Part shown: in pieces, positions 30,422-50,070 of the stretch
Layout: each line of letters starts with the position of its first letter
Numbering within the stretch: position 1 is the stretch's first letter
NCBI GenBank assembly: GCA_024613925.1
Contig: GCA_024613925.1_4713.1
Strand: one strand, 5' to 3'
DNA: 64,000 bases
Source of the DNA: a phage
The notes under the pieces: model-generated
What the model was told of the DNA's origin: nothing
Databases searched by the model: none
What the model saw: the letters and a program-made list of their open reading frames with translations, nothing else
Program-made: the position numbers and the translations under genes

Positions 30422-30511
30422 TCCGATGCGGTAAATGTCTACTAGCTCTCATAATCTATTGAAGAAACTACCAGCTTACGCCAACTTAGATTAATCAGGA
30501 GTAACCATCCC

Positions 30512-30985
30512 ATGCCAGTTTCATCCAAACCAAGAAAAAAATCCGTAGGAAACCCTAAAGCTCAGGAAACAACAGCAATTCGTTGGGACGAGTTACGTGA
30601 ACCTATCGAAAACTGCGAATTGTTATTAGGTACCCTGGGTGCGGCTATTTACCAAGCGACGCAACCCTGTCGTTTACGATTAACCCAAAACAAACGTGAT
30701 GAGTTCGTTGCGTTATCAACAAGCACGAATAAAGATCTGACCGAACTTCAAACCGAGTTGACGACGATCAAGAACTCCATTACGCCGATGTACGGTAAAG
30801 AAGTTGATGAACAAAGTATTCTGTTACAGTACAACTACGGGATGTCGTTAATGAACATCCTGGAACGCGCATCCGATATTCTGCGTCCTGACGTTGCACG
30901 CCTGAGCCAACTGCGTGTCGAAGGGATGGAGAACCAGATCCGATTCGCTAACAGTGTTAAATCTCAAGGAGCCACCGAAGCATGA
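30512..30985 (+). CDS. Hypothetical protein
   Basis: 157-aa ORF; AGGAG before ATG; 4-bp overlap with next gene. Confidence 0.5.
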   Translation: MPVSSKPRKKSVGNPKAQETTAIRWDELREPIENCELLLGTLGAAIYQATQPCRLRLTQNKRDEFVALSTSTNKDLTELQTELTTIKNSITPMYGKEVDEQSILLQYNYGMSLMNILERASDILRPDVARLSQLRVEGMENQIRFANSVKSQGATEA

Positions 30986-32667: not shown

Positions 32668-32729
32668 TCGATCCGCGATACGGGTTACATGACGGACAAC
32701 TTGTTCGTAATGATGAAAAAATCTGGGAA

Positions 32730-33089
32730 TTGCTGTTAGCGCGTAAAGGCGACGGCGGCATGAAACTGAACATCGAAATGGGTATTGCGTACGATACCAT
32801 GTTTGGTTTGTACGACCGCGTTAACGAATGGACACCGTTGAAATGGGTGGCTCAGCATCCCGCTGAAGATCCCTGGGACAGATTAGGGATTAAACCCTTA
32901 ATCGAGGATTATGTTCGATTCGGTATTAAAGAGTTCATGACGCTGGATGCGTTTTTAAAAGCACCGTATCCTTACGCGCAAACGGTACTCAAAATCGCAC
33001 AAGACGAACTGCGGAAACGTAGTGCGGTACTGGACGACGATGAGGACAAGTTACGACGAGAAGAAGAACGTTTACGAAACGGAAAATAA
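32730..33089 (+). CDS. Downstream ORF, either a frameshift extension of 30982..32667 or a separate small gene
   Basis: Track start is TTG with no convincing ribosome-binding site; frame is open upstream to 32556. Confidence 0.35.
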   Translation: MLLARKGDGGMKLNIEMGIAYDTMFGLYDRVNEWTPLKWVAQHPAEDPWDRLGIKPLIEDYVRFGIKEFMTLDAFLKAPYPYAQTVLKIAQDELRKRSAVLDDDEDKLRREEERLRNGK

Positions 33090-33090
33090 A

Positions 33091-33600
33091 ATGGCGAGAT
33101 TTACCAGTTTGATTGGGTTGGATATTTGGGAAACACCGGCTGACGTTCGGGTTATTCCTGTCAACACCGTCGGTGTGATGGGACGCGGTCTTGCCAAGCA
33201 GGCGGCCGATCGTGTACCCGGTCTTCTTGAAGCGTACCGTAAGCAATGTCAAGATGGGTTTAAGGTGGGCGAAGTCGTGTCATATCAGCATGGCGAGAAC
33301 GATCAGCTCACCTACGTGTTGTTTCCATCAAAATCGGATTGGCGCGAAAAAACACGACGTGAGTATATCGTTAATGGTTTACTGGCGTTAAAAGCGTGGT
33401 TATTGGAGCTTCAGTTCGAAAGAGACGGCTTCTCATACCACCGTCCGGCTGAACCGTTGATTGTCGCAATTCCTCCGGTTGGTTCTGGTTGCGGTAATAT
33501 CGGTTACGGACAATCCGAAACAATCCAGCCTCAATGGGTACGCGCACAAATCAAACAGTATCTTGCCACCGTGCCAAACGTTCATTTCTACTTGTTCTAA
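33091..33600 (+). CDS. Macro-domain protein (ADP-ribose binding or processing)
   Basis: VIPVNTVGVMGRGLAKQ matches the N-terminal glycine-rich macro-domain motif; start moved to ATG at 33091 (MARFTSL) one nt after the upstream stop. Confidence 0.65.
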   Translation: MARFTSLIGLDIWETPADVRVIPVNTVGVMGRGLAKQAADRVPGLLEAYRKQCQDGFKVGEVVSYQHGENDQLTYVLFPSKSDWREKTRREYIVNGLLALKAWLLELQFERDGFSYHRPAEPLIVAIPPVGSGCGNIGYGQSETIQPQWVRAQIKQYLATVPNVHFYLF

Positions 33601-33611
33601 TGCAACGGTAA

Positions 33612-33653
33612 CATAACCCTCTCCCTTCCCTTACGGGTTGGGAGAGGGCTTAT
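33612..33653. terminator. Bidirectional hairpin between convergent genes
   Basis: CATAACCCTCTCCC...GGGAGAGGGCTTATG extended stem, same core as the 2264 and 26450 elements. Confidence 0.5.
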
Positions 33654-33665
33654 GCTGTTATGTTA

Positions 33666-34040
33666 TTAATGTTCGTTCCAGATGGCATCTTCCGGTGGAA
33701 CAATAGGATCTTTCTTCGGCATTGATGGCACTTCATGACGATGTTTACGGAACTGCCTATCAATAACCTCACGAAGCCGGTACGCGTCAACCCATGTTGA
33801 TTTATTGAACAGCTCCAACGTCACGGTTAATCGTGTTCTTGACATTGAATAGCTTTTCTTTGCAATCAAATTGGGATAATTCAGTTGAGCGAACCACGCA
33901 CGTATCTGTGCTTCGGTAAAAGCGATGCTGTAATAACTAAGTTTACCGTCATTAAAATCGTGCGCGTGGGTGTAGCGTCCAGCGTAACGCCAGACAAGAT
34001 GCACATTCAGATCGATCCATGGTGGGGTGGTATCAGCCAT
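33666..34040 (-). CDS. Hypothetical protein
   Basis: 124-aa ORF. Confidence 0.5.
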   Translation of the reverse strand: MADTTPPWIDLNVHLVWRYAGRYTHAHDFNDGKLSYYSIAFTEAQIRAWFAQLNYPNLIAKKSYSMSRTRLTVTLELFNKSTWVDAYRLREVIDRQFRKHRHEVPSMPKKDPIVPPEDAIWNEH

Positions 34041-34049
34041 GTGTTACCC

Positions 34050-34619
34050 TCAACGATTCTTCATCACTTTACCCAGGCTTTCGATATTATCCCAAAAGCG
34101 ATTTTTACTTGGCGCATCGCCAACGATAACCGACATCAAATCGCGACGTTCACGACTGATGATGCCCTGTGATTTCCAGATCACCATCGTCCAGCAAGCT
34201 GCCAGAACGAACAGATGGTTAATGCTCGGTTTGGTTTGCGCGATGAACGCAAGCCATGCCCAGATACCGGTATATACTAGCGTCACTAAAAAGAGGGAGA
34301 TTGTCGCAATGACAACAACGAAGTTTTGGACAGCGGGTTGATTCGCGTTATCATGAATAGCGGTAAGATCGGGAAGGTTACCTTCAACTGAACTCGTTTC
34401 ATCGATTTCCAATTCTTCGATTTCTTTTCGTGTGTCGGGAGCTAATCCGGCATCATCAAGATGCTTTTTTAACCGCTGTATACTTAATCGTTGACCGACA
34501 GGAATGTTGATGTTGTCGTAACTATTAAGCGCATCAACCAGGGAGCGCCCGTCAACGAGAACCAAGCTCGCAGTACCCATTGTCTGCGGTTTTATTTTGT
34601 AAAGGTCTTTTACTTTCAT
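34050..34619 (-). CDS. Putative membrane protein
   Basis: 189-aa ORF with hydrophobic segments (FVVVIATISLFLVTLVYTGIWAWLAFIA, LFVLAACWTMVIW). Confidence 0.5.
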   Translation of the reverse strand: MKVKDLYKIKPQTMGTASLVLVDGRSLVDALNSYDNINIPVGQRLSIQRLKKHLDDAGLAPDTRKEIEELEIDETSSVEGNLPDLTAIHDNANQPAVQNFVVVIATISLFLVTLVYTGIWAWLAFIAQTKPSINHLFVLAACWTMVIWKSQGIISRERRDLMSVIVGDAPSKNRFWDNIESLGKVMKNR

Positions 34620-34640
34620 GTAGACACCACCTCCAACGTG

Positions 34641-37253
34641 TTAAGCGTCTGGTGTAAAATCAAAAGGAATGTCCGTACGAATGACATCATAGCGTTTTCC
34701 GAGGAAATAAAACTCTTCGGGAACCTGACCGGGAATAATGCTATCGCCGATGAACTGCGGATACGCCCAGATGTACTGAGTGAGTCCTTCGAACATATCC
34801 AGGTTATTTGCGTGGTTGCCCATGATACGTTTCCAGAGTTCGCGTTTATACGGTGTTTTAACATCGAACCCATAAAGCGGTGCAAGATCTTCACCAGGAA
34901 CAAATCCCAGGTAATAGTGAATCTGACTAACCGGGAAACCAAGCGTATCTCGCGGAATGGTGATCGCTTGCTCTGCCTTGGTGACATGCGTCTCAATAAT
35001 CCAGTCGTAACACTCCGAATAGAACCGATCGAATTTCTCTGGATTATACCACGCTTTGGGAAGATTCAGTTTCTCCGTGAACGCGTTCGACATGATCGTC
35101 GGCAAGAACGGAAGAATACCGGTTTTGATCTGCGTGTATTTCGATTTTACCCGGTTAACCAAATTCCAGCAACTGTATCCTAACTGTTCGTTACAAAACT
35201 CAACGTAGAGATCGTAGTCACCGCCGGATAATGGGTTGTTGATGTCACCGATGTCTGCGGCATATTTGTTGGGATATCGGTTATTGAAAGCCAGTTTGGT
35301 CTGGTAGTCGTAGATACACGGTTTGTTGTTCGCTGTATTGATCCACCACCAAGGTTCACCTACCTGCACACAAATGTCCTGGACATGAGGGTAGATGATA
35401 TCAGCGAATGCCGTTAACACATCCCCTAACCACGCCATCGCCTGTTGGTTACATGGAGACAGCAACCAAGATGGTGGCGTATATCCGGTTGCTGCGATGT
35501 TTCCTTCCCAATCCTGCTGCGCCCACTCGAACGGGCATGCGGTACTCATCAATTCGTAACTTAAACTGATGGTGACAGAGAAATGGTGTTTTGCAGCATA
35601 TGCGGCGAAAGCTTCATGCCACGCAATACAGGCCGGATTTAATACATCCGTGGTGTTTACCAGTAACTTACCTGCACTTGGCGTCCAGACAGTATCGTAG
35701 AAATGCGACATGCCAACATAATGCACTAATTCATCTTGATATCCCGCATAAACCAGGTTCTCAAATACGCGCTCCGGCGTGATGTTGTAATGGTCATCAT
35801 AAGCAGTTATCGCACGAAGTTCGTGTGGTGTACAGTGGTGGCGACTAACCGTCATTTCCTGATACACCCCATCGATAGGAAGAATCTCGAGGGTTAAGCC
35901 GAGGTCGATTGGCGTTTCCAGATAGGTCGTTTCAGTCGCACCTTCCTTATAATGTCGAGAACTCATGCTGAACATCAACGACGCTACCGATTCGAGTTCG
36001 ATAGGCTCGTCAGCATAGAACCCCGCCATTGCGTCATTGAAATCGATCGTCACGATTGCGCTTCTACCGTCTTCAGAGACATCGGTCGCATATCGGGTTA
36101 ATGAGATATACTGACGGCTATCGTCTTTGTGTACGACGGTTAAAACCGGCGGGTGTTCGGTATCTGCAAAGTTACGCTGGTCGCCAGTAAACGTGACCTT
36201 CGCTTTAAAGATCAAACCGAGTAACGATGTCATGGGATCATACGCAATACTGCCGTGATCCAGCGTATCCGTTGTCCGCCATTCTATCCCGACCAACCCG
36301 TTAGCGGTATGGCATCGCATATACGCATTAAGTGTCATGTCCTCACTGACAACCGCGAAGTTCTCTGTTGACTGACCGTTGATAATCCAATACATCGGTT
36401 GCCAGAGGTTACGCGTACCTTTTGCGTAGTGGTAGGTTGGTGCGCCTTTGGGATTGCCATTATTAAGATGAAATACAGCAGTACCTTGATAATGGTCGTT
36501 CGTATTAATCGGAACACTGTAAGCATCACCGAGGTCCGTACGTTCGACCTTCGTGACTGTTGCGTTTTCAAACAACCCACGTAACGCCGGTAAACCGATA
36601 TCTTCAGGTGCGTTTTCTCGACGAATCGCATCCGCGATGCGGTGGGCTAAGGCGGGGTAAATGGCATCACCCTGTTGTAGGTTTGCAAGACCTACAAAGC
36701 GATCGGGGTCGATGCCAGCAATCAATAACTCAACATCACCCTTCGTTCTATCGTTGTGAAGATATTTCAGTCCAGTAAGATCGAGGTGCTGAATAAGCGA
36801 CAACAGGTTGTATTTACGGTTTTCAACAGTTAGTACAAGATCGCCTGCCCAAACCAAACTTCCCTCATCCGCTGTTACTTTAACGGATTGTCGGCCTGTG
36901 GTAGACGTTGTTGTCGTTTTATTTAATTGTCCTTGTAGGAAGTCGGTTGCGAGGTCAAAGGCAATGCCGTAACGGTCAGCGACCGCTTGCATGATTTCAC
37001 GTAACTGGGTATCTTCTTCAATGATAATCTTGACAGGTATTCCCAAGAACGCTTTAGCGAGGTCTCGTTTAACCAACGAGACGAATACGGATTTGTAGTA
37101 TCGACTTCCATCTTTCCCTTTAAAAAGAATGGAGGTTGTTTCGGGTGACGATAGAATACGCGCAAATTCAACATCGTCGAAAGTAAGAGAAAGTCCGTTT
37201 TTCTCGTTGACCAATCTTAGTATTTCATTTTGCGCGGTTTCATGTAACTTCAT
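34641..37253 (-). CDS. Tail fibre or tailspike protein with conserved N-terminal anchor domain and aromatic-rich C-terminal domain
   Basis: N-terminal block ..RDLAKAFLGIPVKI..YGIAFDLATDF shared with three other genes; C-terminus rich in W/Y (GEPWWWINTANNKP). Confidence 0.6.
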   Translation of the reverse strand: MKLHETAQNEILRLVNEKNGLSLTFDDVEFARILSSPETTSILFKGKDGSRYYKSVFVSLVKRDLAKAFLGIPVKIIIEEDTQLREIMQAVADRYGIAFDLATDFLQGQLNKTTTTSTTGRQSVKVTADEGSLVWAGDLVLTVENRKYNLLSLIQHLDLTGLKYLHNDRTKGDVELLIAGIDPDRFVGLANLQQGDAIYPALAHRIADAIRRENAPEDIGLPALRGLFENATVTKVERTDLGDAYSVPINTNDHYQGTAVFHLNNGNPKGAPTYHYAKGTRNLWQPMYWIINGQSTENFAVVSEDMTLNAYMRCHTANGLVGIEWRTTDTLDHGSIAYDPMTSLLGLIFKAKVTFTGDQRNFADTEHPPVLTVVHKDDSRQYISLTRYATDVSEDGRSAIVTIDFNDAMAGFYADEPIELESVASLMFSMSSRHYKEGATETTYLETPIDLGLTLEILPIDGVYQEMTVSRHHCTPHELRAITAYDDHYNITPERVFENLVYAGYQDELVHYVGMSHFYDTVWTPSAGKLLVNTTDVLNPACIAWHEAFAAYAAKHHFSVTISLSYELMSTACPFEWAQQDWEGNIAATGYTPPSWLLSPCNQQAMAWLGDVLTAFADIIYPHVQDICVQVGEPWWWINTANNKPCIYDYQTKLAFNNRYPNKYAADIGDINNPLSGGDYDLYVEFCNEQLGYSCWNLVNRVKSKYTQIKTGILPFLPTIMSNAFTEKLNLPKAWYNPEKFDRFYSECYDWIIETHVTKAEQAITIPRDTLGFPVSQIHYYLGFVPGEDLAPLYGFDVKTPYKRELWKRIMGNHANNLDMFEGLTQYIWAYPQFIGDSIIPGQVPEEFYFLGKRYDVIRTDIPFDFTPDA

Positions 37254-37275
37254 TAAAAACCTCAGCCCTTTAGAA

Positions 37276-37917
37276 TTAAATGTACTGCTTACCGCCCACG
37301 AAGGAAGTTAACCAGTTACCCGAAACAAGCTGCGAAGCCCAGCCAGGCACTGCCCTACCATTCTGGCTCATGATGTTACCACACCAACCAGGGAATCCGG
37401 GACGGATGTAATAGAAAGTTAAATTGTAGAGATGGCAATTCCATACCGCAACGTTATGTTTACCAGAAACCGCTTTAAAGACAAACGCAACGGGTAAAGG
37501 CGACGATAACAATTCAGTCACAGGAACAGCTGACCAGTTCGCATTCGCGTTCCACGGCTGCCATGTGTGTTTGCGCGAGTCACAGTTAACGTTACCGTTG
37601 TTACCGCGCCCACCCGCATGCCACCATAGCGACGGACTCATGTTCTTAAGTGAGGTAAATTGCTGCGGTGGAATATTAGGAATGATAACAGGGTTGGTAC
37701 CTTGTCCGTGTTTCTTTTCTTTTGCGTTTACATACCCACTTATCGATTCGAGGTATTTGACACCAGGATAATTGTTCTGGACTTGTGTCGCAATATCACG
37801 AACGTCGAACGTCCAGCAGATCATGGTGTTGTAGTAAGCGTCGGTGTTATCGTGCCATGAGTTACCATCTTGTAAACGTGCGCCGCTATTCGGTGTTTTA
37901 TCTGTACTTATAGCCAT
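37276..37917 (-). CDS. Hypothetical Trp-rich protein in the fibre cluster
   Basis: 213-aa ORF. Confidence 0.5.
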   Translation of the reverse strand: MAISTDKTPNSGARLQDGNSWHDNTDAYYNTMICWTFDVRDIATQVQNNYPGVKYLESISGYVNAKEKKHGQGTNPVIIPNIPPQQFTSLKNMSPSLWWHAGGRGNNGNVNCDSRKHTWQPWNANANWSAVPVTELLSSPLPVAFVFKAVSGKHNVAVWNCHLYNLTFYYIRPGFPGWCGNIMSQNGRAVPGWASQLVSGNWLTSFVGGKQYI

Positions 37918-38055
37918 GGTCTTGTCCTATACGTTGGTGGTTGAAATGGCGGATATCGGATGCATGCTGGACGTGAACCCTATAATTCGCGCTATCGCCA
38001 TTTTCTACCTCGTTTCTATTCTCAAAAAGGAAATTTCATACGATGACGCCATAGC

Positions 38056-38090
38056 AGCTCCTCCTTCCCTGACGGGTTGGAGGAGCATAC
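38056..38090 (-). terminator. GC-rich hairpin downstream of the lipoprotein gene
   Basis: GCTCCTCC ttccctgacgggtt GGAGGAGC with CATAGCA flank. Confidence 0.35.
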
Positions 38091-38094
38091 TTAA

Positions 38095-38601
38095 TTACTT
38101 ACTGATAACCTCAACGGAATCCGGGTCGGCGATCAGCGCACGATCGGTAGAACAATTGAAGAAGACCATACCAACACCATCACCGTTCGAGTTCAGGGTT
38201 GAACTTGCGTAAGACAGGGTTGGTTTATTCATGCGGTAGAAGCGTTCGCTGGTTGTGGTATTGAACCCCAGATCAACGTAGTCTTTCACCGTGGTGTACA
38301 ACTGTGTGGACTCGAAAACGGTTACCGGAGAGTCAACGGTAAACTGACTGCCTTCATCCACAACCAGAACTTTATCGTTCCAGATTTCAGTGGTTGAGAA
38401 CTTCGGTTTCCAATGTTCGAATTCCTGGGTTGCACCCCAGCAAGAATACACAGCGAGATTGCTGTTCTTCTCGACAGGTTTCAACCCCACCAGTTGTGTC
38501 AGGTCTTTATCCAGGTTCGGTAAACCTTCCAGCGTAGCACACCCACCCAGAGAAAGCACCATCAACATACCAAGAACGATCGTGCAAAGTTTCTTCATCA
38601 T
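38095..38601 (-). CDS. Putative lipoprotein (superinfection-exclusion candidate)
   Basis: N-terminus MMKKLCTIVLGMLMVLSLGGCAT: signal peptide with lipobox-like LGGC; sits between fibre genes. Confidence 0.55.
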   Translation of the reverse strand: MMKKLCTIVLGMLMVLSLGGCATLEGLPNLDKDLTQLVGLKPVEKNSNLAVYSCWGATQEFEHWKPKFSTTEIWNDKVLVVDEGSQFTVDSPVTVFESTQLYTTVKDYVDLGFNTTTSERFYRMNKPTLSYASSTLNSNGDGVGMVFFNCSTDRALIADPDSVEVISK

Positions 38602-38641
38602 CGGATTTCCTTATGTGTAACGGGAGTGATCTCCATAGTAA

Positions 38642-39226
38642 TTACACAGTTGTAGGAAATTCCGGCCAATCGATATTTGGTGCTGTTGATGTGTCAACGC
38701 GATGCAGAGCCACCCGATACTTTTTCCATGCCGTCAACATGGACACCTCTTCTTCCGTTGCGATCTCCAGATCCACAGCATCCTGAAGTGGCGTAATATG
38801 ATCATTCGCCGCCTTCATCAGACTGTTTTTTGTTTCTTCCGCCTCCCGGATCCGGAACAGTTTTTCTGCTTCCGTATCCTTCACCCAGGCTGTGCCGTCC
38901 CACTTCTGAAACTCCCCTTCCGGCGATAACCAGGTAACATTTTCCGGTAACGGACCGAGTTCAGAAATAAATAACGCGTCGCCGGAAGCCACGTCATAAA
39001 CCGTTTTACCCCGATGATCTTCAACGAGATGCCACGATTCATTTTCATTGTTAAAAACTGCCACAAAACCAGCAGGAATTTCCGGTGGGGCGATATCTGT
39101 AGAATTAGCTGGCAGACCTGTATGAGGCGGAATATATGCATCACCTTCACCAATAAATTCATTAGTTCCGGCCAGCAGATTATAAATTTTTATGGTCCGT
39201 GGTTGTTCACTCATTCTGAATGCCAT
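38642..39226 (-). CDS. tfa: Tail fibre assembly protein (lambda Tfa family)
   Basis: [39 protein letters not shown]... matches the lambda/E. coli prophage Tfa chaperone as recalled from memory; directly follows the fibre gene with start/stop overlap. Confidence 0.85.
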
Positions 39227-42200
39227 TATGCAAGCCTCACGATGTAGTTAAATGCAATGTTTTTGACGGTGTTTTCCGCGTTACCCGTAGCGTTAACGGT
39301 GATGGTGTGTCCATGTGATCCAATCGCAACCGAGTGCGTATGCGCACCAATACCTACAGTATGTGCATGTGCGCCAGAACTTGCTGCAGTACCAGACAGC
39401 GAGTGGGTATGTGCTCCATCTGATGATGTCTTCCCTGATATACGGGTCATACCTGAGCCACCTTCCAGTGGTACAATTGGTGCTTTGACTGAAACCTGGG
39501 TATAACCGTTAGGAAAGAGTGCACCATTATTAGAATTCGTATATGGTCCAGAACTCCGGTGTTGGTGCCCACCTGCACTATTTGCAGTCCCGCTCACACT
39601 GTGTGTATGTGCCCCGGTGTTATTCGTGGATTTAGTGCCGTAATCAAACGACGATGTGGTTTTCGTCCCCAAATCCGTATTGGATGCGCTGGCGCTATGG
39701 TTGTGCGATTTTATGCCGTCCTGTTCCTGAGACAATACGGCACGACCACTGGCAGGTTTGCCCTTAATCGTCCAGCCACGCATATCAGGAATAACGCCTG
39801 ACGGATAAGCCACTGCAAGTTTCGGGTATACAGATTTGTCAAAAGTCTGCCCTTGCATCAGAGCATAACCAGACGGAACGGTATCTGAAGGCCATGGAAT
39901 AGGCGCGCCAACAGGCAACTCCGGAGGTGCGGTAAACTCACCCAACTCCTTTATTGCCTCAATAAGTAGAGCTATTTGGGCAGAGATAGAGACCGTTAAA
40001 ACGTCCTCACCATTAGCGTCTTTATAAGTAGAAACTGCTTCAGGTAACACTTTTTGTAAGGTTTGTGCTACAACGCCAACCTCACGATGAACATTAGTGG
40101 ATTTAAAGTTCTCCTTTTTGTCGTATATTAAACCTGACAATTTCTTTACCTTCTCCAATGCATTAGTTATTGGAGAGAAATTACTTTTCAGCCGGGCGTC
40201 TGATCGTGTATAAACTTCGTTAAAGTTACCGTTCCCATCACAATCTATATTTCCAGTAACGTTGAGAGGTACATAGCTTTGAACAGCCTCTCTCGTAAAG
40301 CGTAAAACGTGGTCATAATCGGCGTAAACATCTAGAACGCCGTCCCCGTTCTGCTTAAAGCCGGTGTCATCATCCCCTAAAGCTATGGAGTTCTCACCTA
40401 AATGATTCTCGGTTCCAATACCCAGATTATCGCTTAAAATACTATCAATAGCAAATATTGAATGAGAACAATAAAACCCTCGTCCATTGTTAAAATCCAA
40501 AATGGTTTGTGCGTTCGTGCTTTCTGTCGCGGGATTAGTTGCTCCCCACTTATAGGTTGTTTGACCGACGGTATAATTCTTGGTCGGAACACTAACCGAT
40601 AACCCTTCTTCGGCAAAAACTTGAATAGGGAAAGCCCTACCTTCGACGTAAAAAACGCTGCACACATCATCATCTTCCGCACCTGTTACAATGGAATGGA
40701 TTGCGCGCTCATCAGTATCATATATCGAAAAATACCCTGCTGCGTATGAACCACGATCAGTCCAACCGCCCGGCATTACCGTTCCATTGAATTCGCAGTT
40801 ATTCATTGCATAATCACCACTGGCAGATGTGGTTGTAATAACCACTCTGGAAGCCAGTTCGCCAGTGCTACCAGTGGAACGCCGGAAAATAACTGGATAC
40901 CACTTTCCGCCAACGGCTTTAGACGGCGCGTTAAATACGTACTGCCGCATTCCTTTTTTCTTATCCACCTCGTCTTTGCTGTAAACATTAATGTTACTCA
41001 GGAAGCGACCCTTATCAGGAATATCTGCGCCGTTAGAACTGCGTTGCATAGCGCCCGCAGCTTTATCAACAGTGGTTTTCAAACCCAGGAAGTTAATGAT
41101 ATCGGCCGTCGACCCTTTCGCTAACAAATCACGCGCAGTCGAGGTGAAATCCGCTAACCCTACCTGATTACTACCGGTAAAATAAGGGAGTTTATTCGCT
41201 TCTGTTGTTAGGTTAGACCACGCCGTGAGCAGCGCGTTCAAAGGTTGTTTACCCGCCAACGTATTGGTTATTGTCGTTGCGAAATTAGGATCGTTCCCTA
41301 AAGCTTGAGCCAGCTCATTAAGCGTATTTAGCGCTTCTGGAGACGAGTCGATCAGTGATGCGATAGCACGCATCACAAATTCCGTGTTGGCAATCTGTCG
41401 ACTGCTATCGTTCTCTGCAGCCGTAGGCGCTGCCGGGATACCGGTGAACACAGGGCTATTAAGATCTGCCTTGAGAGCGATGAGACGTTTAAGTGCGTCG
41501 ACATCGACTTTCAGGTTTTCCCATCCGATGAGAGAACCACCACTGCTGGCATGGTAACGGTTGTACCAGAAGTCACCGTTAACGCCTAAAAAGAATATTC
41601 CCTTCTCTTCGTTTTGTGGGCCGGAACTATTTCGTGACGAGCTGATGTAATTGATTTCAATGAGGCCGTTAAACGTCACTCCCGGGATGATTTTGTTGTC
41701 TCCAGCCGACTGTGATACCTGGTAAATCCCCGGGGTTGCGGCTTTGACCCATGTTAAGAATTCTGTTACTCCAGCGGTACCGCTGAAATTCTTAACGTCG
41801 GTAAGTATTGCCCCATAACCGAACATACCGGGTAGAGCCACTCGTCCGTTGGTGCGGTCACGAATATCTGTTGCAACAACAGGCAATTGTTTACGAACGG
41901 CATTAACCGCTTTAGGCGTGGCCGATTTTGTCTCGTCGTCGCTATCGGTTTCATTACTTAGAATAGTTAAACCGCGCGTAGCAGTCGTTGCATCAGGAAG
42001 AAATGCGTTATCCAACACCTTAAGCTGTATTGCACTCGTATTACTAACAACGACATGCACCTGACAGTTAAGAACGCTGGTTGCGCCTTCGGTAGGCGTA
42101 GGCTTATATCTTTCTGGCGCACTGCAGACGGCAATCAGAACACCTTGGTCATCATACAAACCGATCTCACGTACCCAGAACCCACCTTGACCAGCAGGAA

Positions 42201-42438
42201 TAATACCCTCAACGATAATCCTGGTTGTGCTGTCACCATCCGCATGGATATTAGAAACTTCCCCACGATAAACTTCGTGAACAAGCGCTGTTTGGCTGGC
42301 GTTCGGGGTTGGGATCGAGCCGTTACCATCACCAACGGCAAAGTGTGTGATTTTTAGTTTCTCACCGTCGGGAAGTAACGCAGCGGTGATACGTTCTGCT
42401 CCTTTATCGGTAACTACCGTTATATATGCTGTACTCAT
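39226..42438 (-). CDS. Tail fibre protein, mosaic: P2 gpH-like N-terminus and lambda Stf-like His-x-His C-terminal tip
   Basis: N-terminus ..[20 protein letters not shown].. and collar motif [26 protein letters not shown]; C-terminus [53 protein letters not shown]. Confidence 0.85.
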
Positions 42439-42444
42439 GGTGTT

Positions 42445-42972
42445 TTATCCTGGATAAATAGTGATGATATCACCAATGACGGTTGTGGCACCGGCGTAAA
42501 GATGAGCCGGGGATACATCGTGTTGGTTTGTCACAGTAAGATCCAATCGACCACGCCAAACCATGGAGGTATTCGCGATGGGGATAGAGATCTTTTTGGA
42601 TATATCGTCACGAAAATCAATAACAGTGGCAAGGGTAACTGCATCAAAATCGACGTCGGGGTCAAAGACGAACCCGTATCGATCTGAAATCGCCCGAATA
42701 ATCGCATGTATAGTTGTTGTCTCAACGGACTCTAAAACGATTTTTACCGGTATTCCTAAAAATGCCTTCGCGATATCGCGTCGAGCGTAAACGATAAAAC
42801 TTTCACCGCACCACTTTGTTCCTTCATTTGCTGTGACGATCACTTTTGCCCTGTTAGCACCAGAACTCCCATCCAATGTTAATGTAAGATCGGAGCTGCT
42901 GAACACGCTACCGTTACGTTGGTTTATCAACGTAATCAGTTCGTCTTTCCATGGCGGGTAAAGTGAACGCAT
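42445..42972 (-). CDS. Small fibre-associated protein with the conserved N-terminal anchor domain
   Basis: Start moved to ATG at 42972 (MRSLYPPWKDEL) with GGAGGAGGG ribosome-binding site; RRDIAKAFLGIPVKI..YGFVFDPDVDF block. Confidence 0.55.
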   Translation of the reverse strand: MRSLYPPWKDELITLINQRNGSVFSSSDLTLTLDGSSGANRAKVIVTANEGTKWCGESFIVYARRDIAKAFLGIPVKIVLESVETTTIHAIIRAISDRYGFVFDPDVDFDAVTLATVIDFRDDISKKISIPIANTSMVWRGRLDLTVTNQHDVSPAHLYAGATTVIGDIITIYPG

Positions 42973-43127
42973 AAGCGCACCCTCCTCCAACAATCAAATT
43001 AAATTGTAAACGCCTCGAGACCGGAGTGCGATTCGAGGTAAACGTAAACAGTCCAGACGACCGCATAAAATTCCGCGCATATTGCCCCTCTATCCCGACA
43101 AAGCGAGATAGAGGGAGGATAATACTT

Positions 43128-44882
43128 TTATGCTGCTACGTATCCCGGCCAACGTTCTCTTGGCCAGTTTGTTGCGCCCTGCCCAACGTTGTCCTTACCA
43201 GAAATTACATTACTTACGTCCCAACCGCTAAGGTCTTGGTTAAATGCGGTGTTATCGCGCATCATGAGATCGATCTCACGTAGTGACTGGGTATTCCAGC
43301 CGGAAATGTCTTGGTTAAATGCTTTATTGGAGGCAAACATGTTAGTCACGTTCTGTAATTTTGATGTGTTCCAACCACCGATATCACTATTGAACGACGT
43401 GTCCGAGAACATGCCTGCGGCGTTAATGAGGCTGTCTGTTTTCCAGTTAATCAGCTTGTCACCATCGAGCGCCCTGCAACCACCGAACATAAAACTCATA
43501 TCGTTAACTTTGGATACATTCCATTTATCTAACCCGTTACCAACGAACGCGTAACAAGACTGGAACATCCAGCTCATATCGGTAACCCGACTCACATTCC
43601 ATTTACTGAAGTCGAGGTTAAGTTTCTGACACCCTAAGAAGGTTTCACACATACTGGTGATACGACTAACATCCCACTCTTGGATGTTGGGGTCGTTAAG
43701 CGTCGTTAAATAGTTGAACAATTTGTCTAACGACGTCCATTTCTCTGGGATACGGTTTGGTACTGTATGAAGCGATGAAAGGTTATTGGTTGATGGAGAG
43801 CGGAACATGCCGTTATCCCAATTTACGATCTCCGTAATTTCGTACCCTCTGATCGTCTGAGTAGCGTAACCATCTTTCACCGTACCTGTAGCGACGATGG
43901 TATATTCACCAGTGTCCGCATAATCGTGGACGTAGGCATTGTTGCTGGCGGTCTCCGTCGTCTTAGTCCCATCACCCCAATCGATATTGACGTTATCCCA
44001 CCCACCTAGTTTGAACTGTACTTTGCCTCCGGTGGCTTTTAGGATGTATTTACCCCCATTGTCTGTATAATAACAGACAACCATTGGACCGTACAGATTA
44101 CCTATCTGCCAATCATCCTTTTGCGTTATTGCGATTTGCGCCGCACCACGCTGTACGAAGAGTACCGTACGATTCTCGGCAGTCTGTAATGTGGTTATTG
44201 CCTGAGCCTTATCGTCCTCGCTAATTTCACCAGACACCACTAAAGCGCTTAACATCCTTTCGAAGTATTCGATCGGTAACTCAGCTCCAACAGACTTATC
44301 AACAGACTGTACAGCAAGATCACCCAATGCTGCAGTGGTAGCCAATGCCAATGAACCCTTGGTCATATCTGTTTCTTGGATGTAATGCAGTCCCGTAAGC
44401 TGGTACGCTTGAATAATAGTAATCAGGTTCAGCGTATCGTTAACGACCTGTACTTGTAAATACCCGGACCACACATAGCTGTCTTCGGCAATTAGTAGAT
44501 CGACTGACTGAATACCTGATGTTTCAAAGGTGATCTTCTCATTAAGATCGGTTTCCAGGAAATCAACCGCGAGGTCGAAATTAATGCCGTACTTTTCAGC
44601 GATGGAATCTACGATATTTCTTAAAGTAACATCTGTGCTTACGATAAAACGTAACGGAATTCCTGTAAACGCTTTAGCAATGTCTCGACGAACATACGTA
44701 AGCGATTGTTCGAAGAAATACGGGCTGTTATCTCCAGGCTTGATGGTTACCTGGCACACTTCAGGATATTCGGCTGGGATGAACGATTCGAATTTAACAT
44801 CGGATTCTTTCAACGAAAGATTGTTATTCCGGTTCACTAACGCCAGAAGATCGGCTTTCCATCCGGGGTAAACTGTAGACAT
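43128..44882 (-). CDS. Tail fibre with N-terminal anchor domain and C-terminal DUF285/BspA-like repeats
   Basis: Start moved to ATG at 44882 (MSTVYPGWKADL, GGAG upstream); C-terminal repeats WDVSRITSMCETF / WNVSRVTDMSWMF / WNVSKVNDMSFMF / WNTSKLQNVTNMF / WNTQSLREIDLMM / WDVSNV. Confidence 0.65.
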   Translation of the reverse strand: MSTVYPGWKADLLALVNRNNNLSLKESDVKFESFIPAEYPEVCQVTIKPGDNSPYFFEQSLTYVRRDIAKAFTGIPLRFIVSTDVTLRNIVDSIAEKYGINFDLAVDFLETDLNEKITFETSGIQSVDLLIAEDSYVWSGYLQVQVVNDTLNLITIIQAYQLTGLHYIQETDMTKGSLALATTAALGDLAVQSVDKSVGAELPIEYFERMLSALVVSGEISEDDKAQAITTLQTAENRTVLFVQRGAAQIAITQKDDWQIGNLYGPMVVCYYTDNGGKYILKATGGKVQFKLGGWDNVNIDWGDGTKTTETASNNAYVHDYADTGEYTIVATGTVKDGYATQTIRGYEITEIVNWDNGMFRSPSTNNLSSLHTVPNRIPEKWTSLDKLFNYLTTLNDPNIQEWDVSRITSMCETFLGCQKLNLDFSKWNVSRVTDMSWMFQSCYAFVGNGLDKWNVSKVNDMSFMFGGCRALDGDKLINWKTDSLINAAGMFSDTSFNSDIGGWNTSKLQNVTNMFASNKAFNQDISGWNTQSLREIDLMMRDNTAFNQDLSGWDVSNVISGKDNVGQGATNWPRERWPGYVAA

Positions 44883-44922
44883 AAGCACTCCAAAGTTCAT
44901 GGGGCGGTAACCGCCCCGTTGG

Positions 44923-47900
44923 TTAAATTGTTGGTTTAATATCGCGTAATAGGGCAATATAATAGCCTAATCCTCGGAGGATCTCTCCACTCCAGAAACC
45001 AAAATACATTCCGTCTCTGCCGAGATTAGCGCTATCTGGTGCAGGACTCCACCCACCATTCATTACGTCATCAACGGTGTAGCGGTTGATGTAGTTCTCA
45101 ACGATTTCGTTATACGCATTAACCGCAACAGAATAGCCTTTATCGTTGGGATGTCCGTACAACATTGCTAACGACGCACCCGCCAACCATAATCCTGCCA
45201 TATGACCAGTAAAATCATTAGGGATAAAAGCAGGGGGTTTATCCATCGGAAAATCCGTAGGAGATTGATAAGCGTTTTCCTGTTGATACGTAAACAAGAA
45301 ATCGATCCAATGGCTGATGTAAGTGGTTAACTTCTCAGGGACGGCTAAACCACGATCGAGCAGTCCAGCATAAAGCCTCACCGCTGAGAAGAAAGCCCTC
45401 GGCTGATAACCAGACCATGCCGTCTGATCGCCGAAGTGGTACATCGTAAAATCATTAACTTTTGATCCGCTTGGCGCATCCCAACGATCCCACACGTACG
45501 CACTTGCCCCTGGCCCTAAAACCCCGAATTTCTGATAATACCACTGCTGCGAGTCATACCAGAAATTCACAACATTCTGAATCATGAGGTCACGTCGTTC
45601 AGCCGATACGTCCATATCCAGGAAGACCCATGGATGTTGGTAGCCGGGATAAGGCTGACCACGCCAACTGTCGAACGTCGGTGCGTTAGGGACATAGTTG
45701 TTCGAGAACGGAATAATACCCGGAGTATAAGGCAATGGATCCAGACGTTGGTTGACAATCGTACAATCGCCAACACGCAGTGTGCCCTCCGCCTCAAAGG
45801 TTGCTTTTAACGTAAACAGCATGGTATATCCGTCATCCGTGGTGTAAGTTGACGGTGGATTGTTGATGGCGTAAAGCTTAAATACCCCTTCAGCGATATC
45901 GCCGTCGTCAGGCAAGAACAGAATTTCAGTTGAACCATCGCCCCACACAGGTGCAGAAGGTTTAGGGTCAGTATCAGCGTGGCCCGGTTGATACCCTGAG
46001 AGCGTCCATCCGTTCGCCGAAAGCGTCAATGTATTTCTTGCTGTGGTGGCCGGTAGCATATACCACCATCGCCAGCCGTTTGTATCTTCTACACGAACGT
46101 TGTAGTCAATCGACGCGAAATAACTGACCTGCCTTACGATCTGTTTTGCGGTCGGATTGAATTCAAATTGCCCGCCTGCCGCAGTAAGCTGCGCTTTTAG
46201 GAACAACCCATCCCAGGAATCTTCCACCGCTTCGCTGAATTCTGTTGTGATGGCGACATCATCTTTCCAGCCGACTTTATCAGCCGATATCAACACAGAA
46301 CCTGTAACAGCATCGCCGGTTGGCGTTGAAGCTTCATCAACCGCATCAGCAGGAATCAACGAGCCTATTTTGAAATCCCATTCTTTCGGCTCGGCACTGG
46401 AAGGTAACACCAGCTTGTACGTTTTGGCTTTCGCTTCGGTTTTGTCCAAAGAAAGCGATAATGAGATCTCAACCGGAATTGCAATACCCGCTGTATCTTT
46501 ACCACCGCAGGTTACACGAAGAATTGAATCACGATTGACGCGGAACGGAATAGCCTGCTGTTCAAGGTAAATTTGTGCTGAGGATGCTTGAATCACGATC
46601 CAGCCGTCAGTATCACGTGTAATTGTGAACGGTGCTTTCGATGGATAGGTATACGTGTAAGCGATACCGTCGGTGTCGTAACGATCGGTTCCTTTTACCT
46701 GACGGAAGAACTTATCGTTGGCGTCGATACGAGTATATTCTTCAATCGTAAACAACGATGCCTTGTACGCTTTCTGATAGCGCTCCTGCTGCGTTAAACT
46801 GTATAAGGTGTAGGCTGCTTCACAAAACCACTGTTCAGCGTCTGACGCGTTTCCCATGTAGTCTCTGGTGACCGGCACCTGGATCGGTCGGTTATGCTGA
46901 CACTCGTTCGTTTTGATGAGGTATCCGCCATATTCAACAGGAACGCGGGGTGCCCACGCAACCAAATAAGAACCGCTGACGGACTTATCTTTGAGTACGA
47001 TGGTGCCCACCTCATCGTCAGTACACGCTTCAAGATCGTCCCCGCCCACACTTACGTATCGTTTTGTGCGTAACGCAACTTTCTCGATAGGGAACACCGT
47101 ACCCTTTGTATCCCAGTCAATCGTCCCATCATCATTGGTTTTGAACACATCGGCGTTCAAATTCTGCCAGCCGAGTTTACCCTCATAGACCTGAACAACA
47201 AGATCCATGTATTCCCCGAACGTTGGTGCCCCATGTGTTATTTTCCCGATACCGTTGGTGAATGTAACCGCGGTGTCATGGAAACCGCCATGTGTCGGGT
47301 AATCGTTTTTTGCAAGAGGATAATGGGCCAACACCGGCTGTTTACCATTAACAATCCAGTTAGCGATCCAGCGTGCCGGTGTATCCGGTGGTTCAAGACC
47401 CGCATAGAACGCTTTTATATACGCATCGAACGATGCCTCCGCTAATGTGAGATAGTGCGCTTTAAGCTTGGTATCATCCGTTGTATGACTGAATATACCC
47501 GCACCCAGAATTAACAACGACTGTCCTTCTGTTGTTGCGTCACCATCCGGTTGTGCTTCTTGTCGTGTTGCTGCAATGAAATGACGGTTGTTTACCATGA
47601 CCCCGCTTTCATTTAACACGTAATGATCGGTTTCTGGATCGGTAAACGTTCCTGTGTTTCGGGTTAAGAATCTTGCATGGCCATAACCAACGAAATTAAC
47701 CGGCGACGCTGTAATCATCCATTTACCGATAAGTTGAGCAACATCATTATAACGCTCGGATGCGGTGATTTGTTTCACGTACCAGTCTTTACGGTTAAAT
47801 GTCCAAAGCAGGAAGTAATAAGTTGTATCGATTTCCATCACTGGGAACGTCGGCGTTAACGGCTCCAGCATTAAGTAGTTGCTCCAGTCAATCTGTCCGC

Positions 47901-48519
47901 CAACAACCGATGGGGTAATCTCTAATAACTGACACCATTCATAACGGTCCGGTACACTACTGGACGTTGTTGGTAAAGGTAACTTGTATACGCCGGTACG
48001 ATTCAGATCGAACGCTTTTCTAGCCGATCCTAAATCAACATAAATACTCGATGATGCGCTTGCACTATACGCTCCCAAAGCACCTAGCGTTGACCGATAC
48101 ATTGAGATGAACAACGTATCTTTCCAGTACGGGTTATCCTTGGTTGGTTCTAAAGCGATTTGTGCGGAGATGCTGTTCTGTGTCCCTAACTGGTATGTTG
48201 CATTTAAAGATTCTTCCGTGAAATAACTTTCTGCAATTGCCAGATGGAACTGCTCGTTCAATAATGCGAGTGCGGCGCGTCCAGTAACATCCTCATTACC
48301 GGTTTCTTTTTTCATGATCGCGCCGAACGGAAACAATGTCGCGAATGACCGTTTTGGTTTATTAACCGTAACCGTCCCTGTGTAATTTCCAACACCATCA
48401 AGTTTTTGACTATCGCCAACAGCAGTGACTGCGATACCATCAGCCGGGATATCTGTTTTATTTAGTATATTGAGTTGGTCAACCAGATCCTGCTTATCGT
48501 CAGGTAAGAATGTCGCCAT
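44923..48519 (-). CDS. Large tailspike or fibre protein (1198 aa)
   Basis: Strong AAGGTGGAG ribosome-binding site; very long ORF next to fibre genes; Gly/Trp/Tyr-rich. Confidence 0.65.
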   Translation of the reverse strand: MATFLPDDKQDLVDQLNILNKTDIPADGIAVTAVGDSQKLDGVGNYTGTVTVNKPKRSFATLFPFGAIMKKETGNEDVTGRAALALLNEQFHLAIAESYFTEESLNATYQLGTQNSISAQIALEPTKDNPYWKDTLFISMYRSTLGALGAYSASASSSIYVDLGSARKAFDLNRTGVYKLPLPTTSSSVPDRYEWCQLLEITPSVVGGQIDWSNYLMLEPLTPTFPVMEIDTTYYFLLWTFNRKDWYVKQITASERYNDVAQLIGKWMITASPVNFVGYGHARFLTRNTGTFTDPETDHYVLNESGVMVNNRHFIAATRQEAQPDGDATTEGQSLLILGAGIFSHTTDDTKLKAHYLTLAEASFDAYIKAFYAGLEPPDTPARWIANWIVNGKQPVLAHYPLAKNDYPTHGGFHDTAVTFTNGIGKITHGAPTFGEYMDLVVQVYEGKLGWQNLNADVFKTNDDGTIDWDTKGTVFPIEKVALRTKRYVSVGGDDLEACTDDEVGTIVLKDKSVSGSYLVAWAPRVPVEYGGYLIKTNECQHNRPIQVPVTRDYMGNASDAEQWFCEAAYTLYSLTQQERYQKAYKASLFTIEEYTRIDANDKFFRQVKGTDRYDTDGIAYTYTYPSKAPFTITRDTDGWIVIQASSAQIYLEQQAIPFRVNRDSILRVTCGGKDTAGIAIPVEISLSLSLDKTEAKAKTYKLVLPSSAEPKEWDFKIGSLIPADAVDEASTPTGDAVTGSVLISADKVGWKDDVAITTEFSEAVEDSWDGLFLKAQLTAAGGQFEFNPTAKQIVRQVSYFASIDYNVRVEDTNGWRWWYMLPATTARNTLTLSANGWTLSGYQPGHADTDPKPSAPVWGDGSTEILFLPDDGDIAEGVFKLYAINNPPSTYTTDDGYTMLFTLKATFEAEGTLRVGDCTIVNQRLDPLPYTPGIIPFSNNYVPNAPTFDSWRGQPYPGYQHPWVFLDMDVSAERRDLMIQNVVNFWYDSQQWYYQKFGVLGPGASAYVWDRWDAPSGSKVNDFTMYHFGDQTAWSGYQPRAFFSAVRLYAGLLDRGLAVPEKLTTYISHWIDFLFTYQQENAYQSPTDFPMDKPPAFIPNDFTGHMAGLWLAGASLAMLYGHPNDKGYSVAVNAYNEIVENYINRYTVDDVMNGGWSPAPDSANLGRDGMYFGFWSGEILRGLGYYIALLRDIKPTI

Positions 48520-48532
48520 TATTTACTCCACC

Positions 48533-49363
48533 TTAATCGTAACTAAAATAAAGTTTGCTGCTGACGCCGCTATCGGAATGAGGTTTTAACACCAGAACAG
48601 AGCTTCCGAACGACGGAAGTATTGGAACATCTAAATCGTTCGCGTCAGCAACTTTTCCATTATAAACGACACTGGCTGTTGTGATGAGTTCCCAAGCTGA
48701 GGTATAACTCATTGAAATCAGCGATGAGGCTAAACGGAATGCGTTGTATCCTTCTGGACTATCTCCAACCGACATCGAACGTATCGCATCTTGCGGCGGT
48801 AAATTTAGCTTGATACCGTAAGTGCTGAATGTGTGGAAATCCCCTTGTTTACTATCTTCTGGATAGTACGAGGTTAGTGGTTCTCGCACCGTAAACAGTT
48901 CGCTAATATCGGTACTTACCGCTTTTCGTGCGAGGAATTGAAACGTACCGTACCACGATGCCGATGCATCAGAACGAACGGGAACAGATATGGTTTTCTC
49001 GCCGCTTTCAAATTTAACCTGTGATGCTAACGCTGAAGAATCAAAGATCGTTAAATCGATCTTCAACCCATACTTCTTAAACAGCTGCGTTAAGCAATCT
49101 GCTATCGTCGTCTTATCAGCAACGACAATAAAAGGTTGGTGTTTGATAAAGAGCTTATTAATGTCTCGACGTTGAAGATAAACCTGTACGGGGTCTTCGA
49201 CGTAGTAAACCGATTGTGGTGCGGGGGCTATAGAAAGGCGTAACCGACCCGATGCACCATACCAGGCTGGCGTTAACGTAATGTCTGACAGGGATAACGG
49301 ATGCTGGAGATAGGTGTTTATTTTAGATAACACTTCCTCCTGCCATGATGCTTCAGGATACAT
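48533..49363 (-). CDS. Fibre-associated protein with the conserved N-terminal anchor domain
   Basis: ..YLQRRDINKLFIKHQPFIVV..YGLKIDLTIFD resembles the anchor block; GAGG ribosome-binding site. Confidence 0.55.
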   Translation of the reverse strand: MYPEASWQEEVLSKINTYLQHPLSLSDITLTPAWYGASGRLRLSIAPAPQSVYYVEDPVQVYLQRRDINKLFIKHQPFIVVADKTTIADCLTQLFKKYGLKIDLTIFDSSALASQVKFESGEKTISVPVRSDASASWYGTFQFLARKAVSTDISELFTVREPLTSYYPEDSKQGDFHTFSTYGIKLNLPPQDAIRSMSVGDSPEGYNAFRLASSLISMSYTSAWELITTASVVYNGKVADANDLDVPILPSFGSSVLVLKPHSDSGVSSKLYFSYD

Positions 49364-49420
49364 GCTGACCTCATAGATGATCGTTGATAGGAAAGAGACC
49401 TAATTCATACCATGGGAACC

Positions 49421-49476
49421 TTAAAAAAAAGAAAAATAGGAAAACGGTGTTCATCCTTTTAGGGATGAACACCGTG
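49421..49476 (-). terminator. Rho-independent terminator (minus strand)
   Basis: 13-bp stem ACGGTGTTCATCC/GGGATGAACACCGT followed on the minus strand by a long U-rich run. Confidence 0.65.
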
Positions 49477-49494
49477 TACCGTTATATCGAACGA

Positions 49495-50070
49495 TTAATG
49501 AGGAATCAGATCGTTAAGCTTTTCTTCTTCAATGACAAAGAAGTTGTTCTGGTCGTCTAAATCTGTTAACAGGACTTGCCCAACAGTAAAGCAAGTTCCG
49601 CCTTTCTTAGGCACCCATACAGGCTCGTTCGTTACCTTATCGGGATACCATTTGAAACGATTGGTATCTAAGAAGAACGCTGCTTTGTTCGCTTTATCGG
49701 TTGAACGATAGCTAACTAGCGCAGGCCACTCAATCCAGGTGTTTGTGCACGGCACATGTAAAGGATACCATGCGCGCCAGCGTTTGCCTGGCCTGTTAGG
49801 ATCAACCCAATACTCGGCAGTCAATACAGCATCTTTATAATGTTTCTGCATTAACATTTCGAGCACAAGCTCATTGCCTTTTGATGCGTCTAAAGTCACT
49901 TCCGTCATATAAAGAGATTTAGGTAATTCAGACTGTTTTGCGGGTGTTACAACACCGGTAACCAACGGTCTGCTCGGTTTACGTTTCTGTTCTTTCCGAC
50001 GTGTGTAAAAGAATAGTCCGATAGATACAGCAACAAGTATAATAAACAACACTACCTTAATCCAACTCAT
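49495..50070 (-). CDS. Hypothetical protein with N-terminal transmembrane helix
   Basis: MSWIKVVLFIILVAVSIGLFFYTRRK..; 4-bp overlap with upstream gene. Confidence 0.5.
   Translation of the reverse strand: MSWIKVVLFIILVAVSIGLFFYTRRKEQKRKPSRPLVTGVVTPAKQSELPKSLYMTEVTLDASKGNELVLEMLMQKHYKDAVLTAEYWVDPNRPGKRWRAWYPLHVPCTNTWIEWPALVSYRSTDKANKAAFFLDTNRFKWYPDKVTNEPVWVPKKGGTCFTVGQVLLTDLDDQNNFFVIEEEKLNDLIPH

Follow-up and report, generated by a model that had tools for sequence, protein, structure and literature searches.

What kind of protein is encoded by a phage gene that lies within a tail fiber cluster and ends in tandem repeats of a type found in bacterial surface proteins? The question is raised by an open reading frame (ORF), here called gene X, at 43128..44882 on the minus strand of a stretch of phage DNA from NCBI GenBank assembly GCA_024613925.1 (contig GCA_024613925.1_4713.1); the whole stretch of 64,000 nucleotides (nt) is referred to as the window. 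A first-pass annotation had read gene X as a tail fiber in which DUF285/BspA-like repeats replace the usual receptor-binding tip downstream of a conserved anchor domain. Positions 30000-50000 of the window are 96% identical over 79% of their length to E. coli jumbo phage vB_EcoM_Goslar (Goslar in the following), a nucleus-forming phage of 237 kb that belongs to the Chimalliviridae. Judged by its sequence and that of its relatives, gene X is an extra paralog and not a fiber with a swapped end. We observed an intact and constrained gene with recognizable domains, a predicted fold, a fixed syntenic position, a deletion in Goslar, and mosaic hot spots of divergence. On balance, we consider it probable that the product of gene X is an optional and dispensable host-adhesion protein displayed on the virion of a Goslar-like jumbo phage.

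Domain architecture of gene X

The protein can be divided into five consecutive parts, of which the last had drawn attention to the locus (residues are given as amino acid (aa) positions, and pLDDT is the predicted local distance difference test score of the AlphaFold2 model):

43128..44882, minus strand: gene X, encoding a 584-aa protein with the order DUF7941, linker, helices, PKD-like β-sandwich, DUF285 leucine-rich repeats (LRR)
44436..44882, minus strand: globular N-terminal domain of DUF7941 (aa 1-149, pLDDT about 80-86), proposed virion or filament anchor
44358..44435, minus strand: predicted disordered linker (aa 150-175, pLDDT below 50 over aa 150-171)
44169..44357, minus strand: helical segment (aa 176-238) from AlphaFold2 secondary structure, pLDDT about 65-95, missing in one variant (P0053)
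43821..44168, minus strand: PKD-like β-sandwich (aa 239-354), mostly with pLDDT above 90
43131..43820, minus strand: DUF285/PARCEL LRR solenoid (aa 355-584)
43224..43676, minus strand: six full repeats of 24-26 aa (aa 403-553), located by repeat profile, register, and shuffle control

The repeat region originally singled out (43128..43820) covers precisely aa 355-584 and the stop codon, and its description as at least six tandem copies of a repeat of about 26 aa is borne out. The six full repeats share the consensus WNVSxVTxMxxMFxxCxxFNxDISx and are accompanied by a truncated seventh from aa 554 and two degenerate coils at aa 355-402. Each of the six matches a profile made from these same six with an i-Evalue of 3e-12 to 8e-17, which is circular as a test and fixes only the repeat register, while a relaxed form of the motif first proposed occurs five times in aa 355-584 compared to one occurrence at most across 10,000 shuffles. 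The assignment to DUF285 was confirmed by Pfam PF03382 (156 bits against a cut-off of 25, E 4.2e-46, in two stretches across aa 383-564) and by the NCBIfam model TIGR02167 “PARCEL repeat” (67.2 bits against a cut-off of 30). The label “BspA-like” survives as a protein name only, i.e., as the “BspA-family LRR protein” under which GenBank/PGAP lists the exact gene X protein, and fails in the strict sense because the Pfam scan at E ≤ 0.01 gave no match of gene X to the BspA-type repeat LRR_5 (PF13306). The first-pass annotation had named two outcomes as speaking against its reading. A lack of DUF285 hits is contradicted by the profile scores above, and disorder of the repeat region is not what AlphaFold2 predicts: the model (mean pLDDT 86.8, from an 87-sequence alignment) places aa 355-575 in an ordered solenoid with pLDDT of 93-98, predicted as a right-handed coil of short β-strand repeats that can be superposed on solved LRR domains.

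The repeats appear to be ancient and to exist at the protein level, because they are almost erased in the DNA, where just short fragments with a spacing of 75-78 nt are left and Tandem Repeats Finder detected nothing in gene X. A recent DNA duplication as their source was rejected on the same observations. Among gene X orthologs, variable positions of the LRR domain recur at the repeat period, and the FNxDISxW(D/N)VS segment is nearly invariant. Two further properties discussed for PARCEL repeats were looked for in the DNA of gene X. Dyad symmetry was not detectable, with a score of 14 for the repeat DNA against its own reverse complement compared to 12.8 ± 2.3 for codon shuffles (fraction reaching it, 0.30); the PARCEL authors note that divergence may erase this symmetry. 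The PARCEL literature also mentions open antisense frames over repeat-coding DNA, and such a stretch over gene X (140 aa) is ordinary compared to codon shuffles (fraction 0.17). An antisense ORF of 121 aa with a repetitive-looking translation (43189..43554, plus strand) was likewise discarded as a gene candidate, since codon shuffles give such a length (0.17).

Upstream of the repeats, the conserved anchor domain that had been postulated is indeed present and can be named: it is the N-terminal module of DUF7941, common to neighboring genes and recognized by Pfam PF25613 over aa 12-182 (86 bits against a threshold of 27, E 4e-24). The N-terminus of gene X also matches PHROG 1037/2935 (“virion structural protein”), and its module is 31% identical to the homolog of Goslar gp91 and 36% identical to that of gp86 (aa 11-259). 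By inspection, the N-terminus MSTVYPGWKADLLALVNRNN has no hydrophobic core, lipobox, or signal peptide, i.e., no lipoprotein or membrane-targeting signal. The β-sandwich between anchor and repeats bears the PKD signature IDWGDG...H.Y...G.Y and is called PKD-like here, with scores below threshold for Pfam PKD PF00801 (18.1 bits against 23.5, E 0.003) and PKD_4 PF18911 (13.6 against 27). In an exhaustive HMMER search, aa 280-345 matched tandem PKD arrays in giant bacterial proteins with up to 18 stretches at 37-44% identity.

The neighboring tail fiber and the DUF7941 family

Gene X forms part of a minus-strand series with the order gp93 homolog (DUF7941), gp92 homolog, gene X, gp91 homolog, tail fiber, Tfa chaperone, and, further downstream, gp86 homolog:

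44923..48519, minus strand: gp92 homolog, upstream neighbor (1198 aa), PHROG 2871 “tail protein”, 97.6% aa identity to Goslar gp92
42445..42972, minus strand: gp91 homolog, downstream neighbor (175 aa), DUF7941 only by Pfam, 98.3% identity to Goslar gp91
39226..42438, minus strand: actual tail fiber gene (1070 aa) with Pfam Phage_tail_fib, Phage_fiber_2, Peptidase_S74, and Collar
38642..39226, minus strand: Tfa assembly chaperone gene (Caudo_TAP)
34647..37256, minus strand: gp86 homolog, with the same DUF7941 anchor and a TIM-barrel (NCTSP) domain joined to it by Pfam

The view of gene X as a canonical tail fiber whose receptor-binding tip was exchanged for DUF285 repeats can point to an N-terminus common to neighboring genes, a variable C-terminus, and the adjacent fiber gene. 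However, the Pfam search found none of Phage_tail_fib, Phage_fiber_2, Collar, or Peptidase_S74 in gene X, and AlphaFold2 gives globular modules on a disordered linker with no trimeric shaft. The true fiber and its Tfa chaperone are encoded next to it, and the virion of Goslar is estimated to contain about 111 copies of the gene X paralog gp161 compared to 43 of the fiber gp90 (10.64898/2026.04.21.720040). Every scanned relative with the N-terminal domain and β-sandwich stalk (aa 1-354) also carries DUF285, so nothing has been replaced. For this reason, the PKD-like domain and DUF285 are the native C-terminus of the gene X subfamily, and we regard a fiber with swapped tip as highly improbable. 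What does hold is a modified form of the swap idea in which one DUF7941 anchor carries different effector domains across proteins: a TIM barrel, the large domain of gp92, DUF285, or, in a distant protein, LRR_5. This last protein (P0149, 1478 aa) was observed to contain a true BspA-type LRR_5 domain, and LRR-type heads thus seem to have been joined to the DUF7941 anchor at least twice independently.

The tail fiber itself has an unusual layout: its Peptidase_S74 chaperone domain (aa 746-802) is internal, and a Collar domain and histidine-rich GAHTHS repeats come after it. Its C-terminal part together with the Caudo_TAP gene (38664..39915 of the window) shows 87-91% DNA identity to side-tail-fiber/tfa genes of temperate lambdoid coliphages, and Goslar has no match across 38684..41173. 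The jumbo phage appears to have exchanged its fiber tip and chaperone with prophages.

What the DUF7941 anchor might do is suggested by a bioRxiv preprint of April 2026 on the cryo-EM structure and virion proteome of Goslar (10.64898/2026.04.21.720040). According to this work, DUF7941 is specific to chimalliviruses and its module is found in ten Goslar proteins, with gp92 counted among them. Purified gp22 forms filaments, which was shown for this DUF7941 protein only, and AlphaFold predicts head-to-tail docking of the DUF7941 linker on the N-terminal domain of the next protomer as well as a network of interactions (10.64898/2026.04.21.720040). In what they explicitly label as speculation, the authors propose a “fiber cloud” with its anchor at the peripheral baseplate, a region that their structure could not resolve, and suggest that gp86, gp92, and gp161 equip it to recognize the host by way of carbohydrate-binding, hydrolase, or LRR domains (10.64898/2026.04.21.720040). 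Besides gp161 and gp90, copy numbers per virion were estimated at 5 for gp92 and 1 for gp91 (10.64898/2026.04.21.720040). For gp208 and gp209, the preprint shows that GFP fusions are retained at the cell surface once infection has taken place (10.64898/2026.04.21.720040). In phage phiKZ, gp127 has been modeled at the end of the gp139 band in the outer baseplate, and the Goslar preprint lists phiKZ gp127 as a DUF7941 protein (10.64898/2026.04.21.720040). In Goslar, the gp139-like protein of the baseplate is gp32.

The closest known counterpart of gene X is Goslar gp161, which matches both Pfam families, has the same module order (DUF7941, linker, helices, PKD-like β-sandwich, DUF285), and is collinear with 47% identity over aa 8-446. 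Unlike gene X, gp161 has 483 instead of 584 aa with about four LRR repeats fewer and is encoded between helicase genes at about 145 kb and not in the fiber cluster. According to the preprint, gp161 is virion-associated with a proposed role in host recognition. Both types were found together on at least one related contig of 235,874 bp (P0014 and P0080). With other DUF7941 proteins of the Chimalliviridae (Goslar gp22, gp23, gp86, gp91-93; phiKZ gp126, gp127), gene X has in common the globular domain at its N-terminus as well as the disordered linker, but it bears PKD-like and LRR domains instead of theirs. Any virion association, filament formation, or baseplate location of gene X would be assumed by analogy to relatives described in the literature.

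On the side of the repeats, gene X shares the 25-26-residue unit of bacterial DUF285/PARCEL surface proteins (Mollicutes, Listeria, and others) above curated cut-offs and, like many of these, has a PKD or Ig domain beside DUF285. It differs from them by sitting on a phage anchor with neither lipoprotein or membrane signal nor detectable DNA dyad symmetry. On the function of DUF285, the evidence consists only of an adhesion mutant of Lactococcus and the occurrence in surface lipoproteins, and our searches found no solved structure or defined ligand for any member of the family. Jumbo phages, cyanophages, and giant viruses commonly encode the repeat, and large proteins with DUF285 LRR domains are present in Pseudomonas phage OBP gp145, Serratia phage Yubaba, Aeromonas phage D3, Vibrio phage pir03 ORF200, and the giant virus AaV. 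Those that were examined are far longer than gene X and about 30-40% identical in the repeats only, and OBP_145 adjoins a baseplate gene but lacks DUF7941, unlike gene X. The earlier statement that the repeat is rare in coliphage fibers agrees, at the level of coliphage records, with a tblastn search in which two Goslar records were the only Escherichia phages among 114 matching phage records. No paper on BspA or LRR receptor-binding proteins of phages was found in a literature search.

Loss from Goslar and spread among relatives

Small elements on both sides of gene X made it possible to determine what happened at this locus in Goslar:

44888..44891, minus strand: GGAG ribosome-binding site (RBS), 5 nt upstream of the ATG at 44882, still present in Goslar by alignment with its intergenic region
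44901..44917, minus strand: 7-bp G+C hairpin located after the gp92 homolog's stop and before gene X, conserved in Goslar
43085..43116, minus strand: 13-bp hairpin directly past the stop codon of gene X, conserved in Goslar
43140..44885, no strand: stretch absent from Goslar, by blastn break points

The ATG at 44882 was preferred over a longer ORF starting with TTG from 44957, which overlaps the end of the upstream gene and is unsupported by the paralog alignment. Of the two hairpins, the one past the stop codon is stable (-22.8 kcal/mol, z -3.2, equaled by 0/200 shuffles), while the upstream one alone is not significant (-13.6 kcal/mol, z -1.2); a consensus scan called neither of them as an intrinsic terminator.

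In Goslar (NC_048170), the intergenic region reads GGAGTG joined directly to TAGTAGCATAA, i.e., the RBS of gene X is fused to the last 11 nt of the same gene and followed by the downstream hairpin. This scar lies at about 16700-16730 of the Goslar locus in our comparison (L001), corresponds to 43139/44886 of the window, and retains both flanking hairpins, and the fiber cluster of Goslar is otherwise intact with everything except gene X present. Since Goslar keeps the RBS and the last 11 nt and seven of seven other Goslar-like contigs carry gene X, this is a clean deletion in the Goslar lineage, and we rejected an insertion in the lineage of the window. Six of these seven contigs have gene X just upstream of the gp91 homolog and the fiber, and the last one (L012) ends just past gene X. 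The gp91 homolog and the fiber were observed in every contig covering that position, with fiber lengths of 834-1332 aa. The DUF7941 array upstream of the fiber is variable when compared to 44923..49400 of the window: the gp93 and gp92 homologs are missing in L004 and L012, the gp92 homolog in L011, and gene X in Goslar.

Full-length orthologs of gene X form about 50 clusters at 90% identity, are 59-91% identical, and are mostly encoded on contigs of up to 248 kb; the exact protein occurs on a contig of 238,567 bp. Members of its own 90% cluster come from Salmonella enterica assemblies (contigs of 235-243 kb), so gene X is a phage gene that came along with bacterial assemblies. Searched by megablast against the phage collection and complete E. 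coli genomes, gene X has no relative at the DNA level, while an IMG/VR scan gave two distant loci with the gene X protein and none with the ortholog alignment. Goslar-like contigs of 235-248 kb are present in NCBI assemblies labeled E. coli, Salmonella enterica, Shigella flexneri, and Enterobacter hormaechei (observed for proteins P0005, P0009, P0027, P0055, P0066, P0073, and P0121-P0125), and none were found in complete RefSeq E. coli genomes. This suggests that lytic Goslar-like jumbo phages often travel with clinical or food isolates.

Several orthologs deviate from the standard architecture. One is cut off just before the repeats and has 392 aa with no LRR domain (P0051), another has 477 aa and lacks linker and helical segment (P0053), and a third is extended to 775 aa by additional repeats (P0054). 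Finally, a cluster of five member sequences (P0093) shows an in-frame fusion in which the C-terminal part of the gp92 homolog (...LWLAGASLAM) runs straight into the LRR domain of gene X, so that anchor and β-sandwich are gone (equivalent to about 43716..45160 of the window). This fusion may reflect genuine recombination or an artifact of assembly.

Constraint, mosaic divergence, and a possible role in adhesion

The ratio of nonsynonymous to synonymous substitution (dN/dS) by the Nei-Gojobori method (NG86) is about 0.1-0.2 for gene X, with synonymous saturation of the whole gene in 16/36 pairs. By part, the anchor is most constrained (0.05), followed by the LRR domain (0.10-0.14) and the β-sandwich (0.14, with 0.23-0.26 in its core). 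Given these low ratios, gene X is under purifying selection and therefore functional. No positive selection was seen at the level of domains, with dN/dS ≤0.26 everywhere, though this is a weak test given that synonymous sites are saturated in up to 23/36 pairs.

These results also bear on whether gene X might be a decaying or host-derived passenger with no role for the phage, a thought that might be prompted by “Escherichia coli” as the organism label in GenBank. Its deletion in Goslar, the truncated (P0051) and fused (P0093) variants, and the known horizontal movement of DUF285 genes would fit such a scenario. Yet intact copies of gene X make up about 50 clusters at 90% identity on phage contigs of 235-248 kb, and the gene is subject to purifying selection, has its own RBS and a fixed syntenic position, and begins with a module limited to chimalliviruses that shows no signal peptide by inspection. 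We therefore give this explanation very little credence.

Despite this constraint, gene X is the fastest-diverging gene of its cluster. Compared to one Goslar-like contig (L007), it is only 83.6% identical while gp92 and gp91 reach 98.2% and 98.9%, respectively, and much of the difference is concentrated in two places:

43863..44042, minus strand: hot spot 1 (aa 281-340), putative exchanged cassette inside the β-sandwich, with top column entropy among 51 orthologs
43323..43502, minus strand: hot spot 2 (aa 461-520), LRR repeats 3-5

Nucleotide identity to L007 drops to 50-56% in hot spot 1 (codons 281-340) between flanks of 90-96%, and to 66-80% in hot spot 2 (codons 461-520) compared to 91-98% in most flanking blocks. 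In relatives with an identity of 90% or more, the bin of aa 481-540, which overlaps hot spot 2, contains about a third of the substitutions (binomial p 2e-4 to 3e-2). The divergence of gene X is thus mosaic, and the two sharply bounded hot spots have the appearance of exchanged cassettes.

This pattern is relevant for the idea that the LRR domain binds a fiber, filament, or baseplate protein of the phage itself and that gene X serves as a structural adaptor, i.e., a subunit that connects or caps DUF7941 filaments. The highly conserved anchor, the synteny with the fiber gene and small DUF7941 genes, and the AlphaFold-predicted interaction network of DUF7941 proteins would all agree with this. 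However, an internal connector should be conserved and co-vary with its partners, while gene X diverges faster than the rest of the cluster and contains exchanged cassettes, and it is dispensable in Goslar with its otherwise intact fiber cluster. We consider a structural adaptor unlikely for these reasons. With similarly low probability, gene X could be a packaged and injected effector that enters the cell with the DNA and uses its LRR domain to bind a host or phage protein, e.g., in counter-defense or in organizing early infection.

A host-binding role for gene X, as the first-pass annotation had implied, remains plausible in a form other than a tail fiber. For the preferred reading as a displayed adhesion protein, we infer three steps, i.e., that gene X is on the virion, faces outward, and binds the host. 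Through the globular domain and linker of its DUF7941 module, it would be built into, or attach to, the DUF7941 filaments for which an anchorage at the peripheral baseplate has been proposed. This would leave the PKD-like β-sandwich and the DUF285 solenoid of roughly nine coils exposed as a head that binds a ligand on the host surface and aids the first, reversible attachment, with the exchangeable hypervariable patches at aa 281-340 and 461-520 possibly setting specificity. The protein would be optional for infection, as may be seen from the type phage Goslar that has deleted the gene and still infects E. coli. A more far-reaching version can be put forward only tentatively: gene X may represent a new type of coliphage receptor-binding adhesin in which a DUF285 LRR and PKD-like head sits on a micron-scale cloud of DUF7941 filaments and not on a fiber. 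The cassettes at aa 281-340 and 461-520 might in this case tune which surface ligand of Enterobacteriaceae is caught, and gain of gene X, its loss (as in Goslar), and swapping of its cassettes might shift the host range of nucleus-forming jumbo phages between E. coli and Salmonella.

Much of the groundwork was already on record, including the families of repeat and anchor, the fusion of the two in gp161, the hypothesis of a function in host recognition, and the database name of the exact protein. New are a second and longer paralog subfamily with a fixed place in the fiber cluster, the finding that the type phage has cleanly lost it, and the two recombination hot spots; beyond these points, our results amount to a correct domain annotation that public databases already hold. 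With regard to host recognition by nucleus-forming jumbo phages, the preprint went no further than proposing a part for those DUF7941 proteins that have binding domains. Gene X offers a clean natural test of this proposal because it is present in most sampled Goslar-like genomes and precisely deleted in the laboratory type phage, where the scar marks the site for re-insertion. The two short cassettes are candidate specificity determinants, and gene X would offer a tractable model for DUF285 as a widespread repeat.

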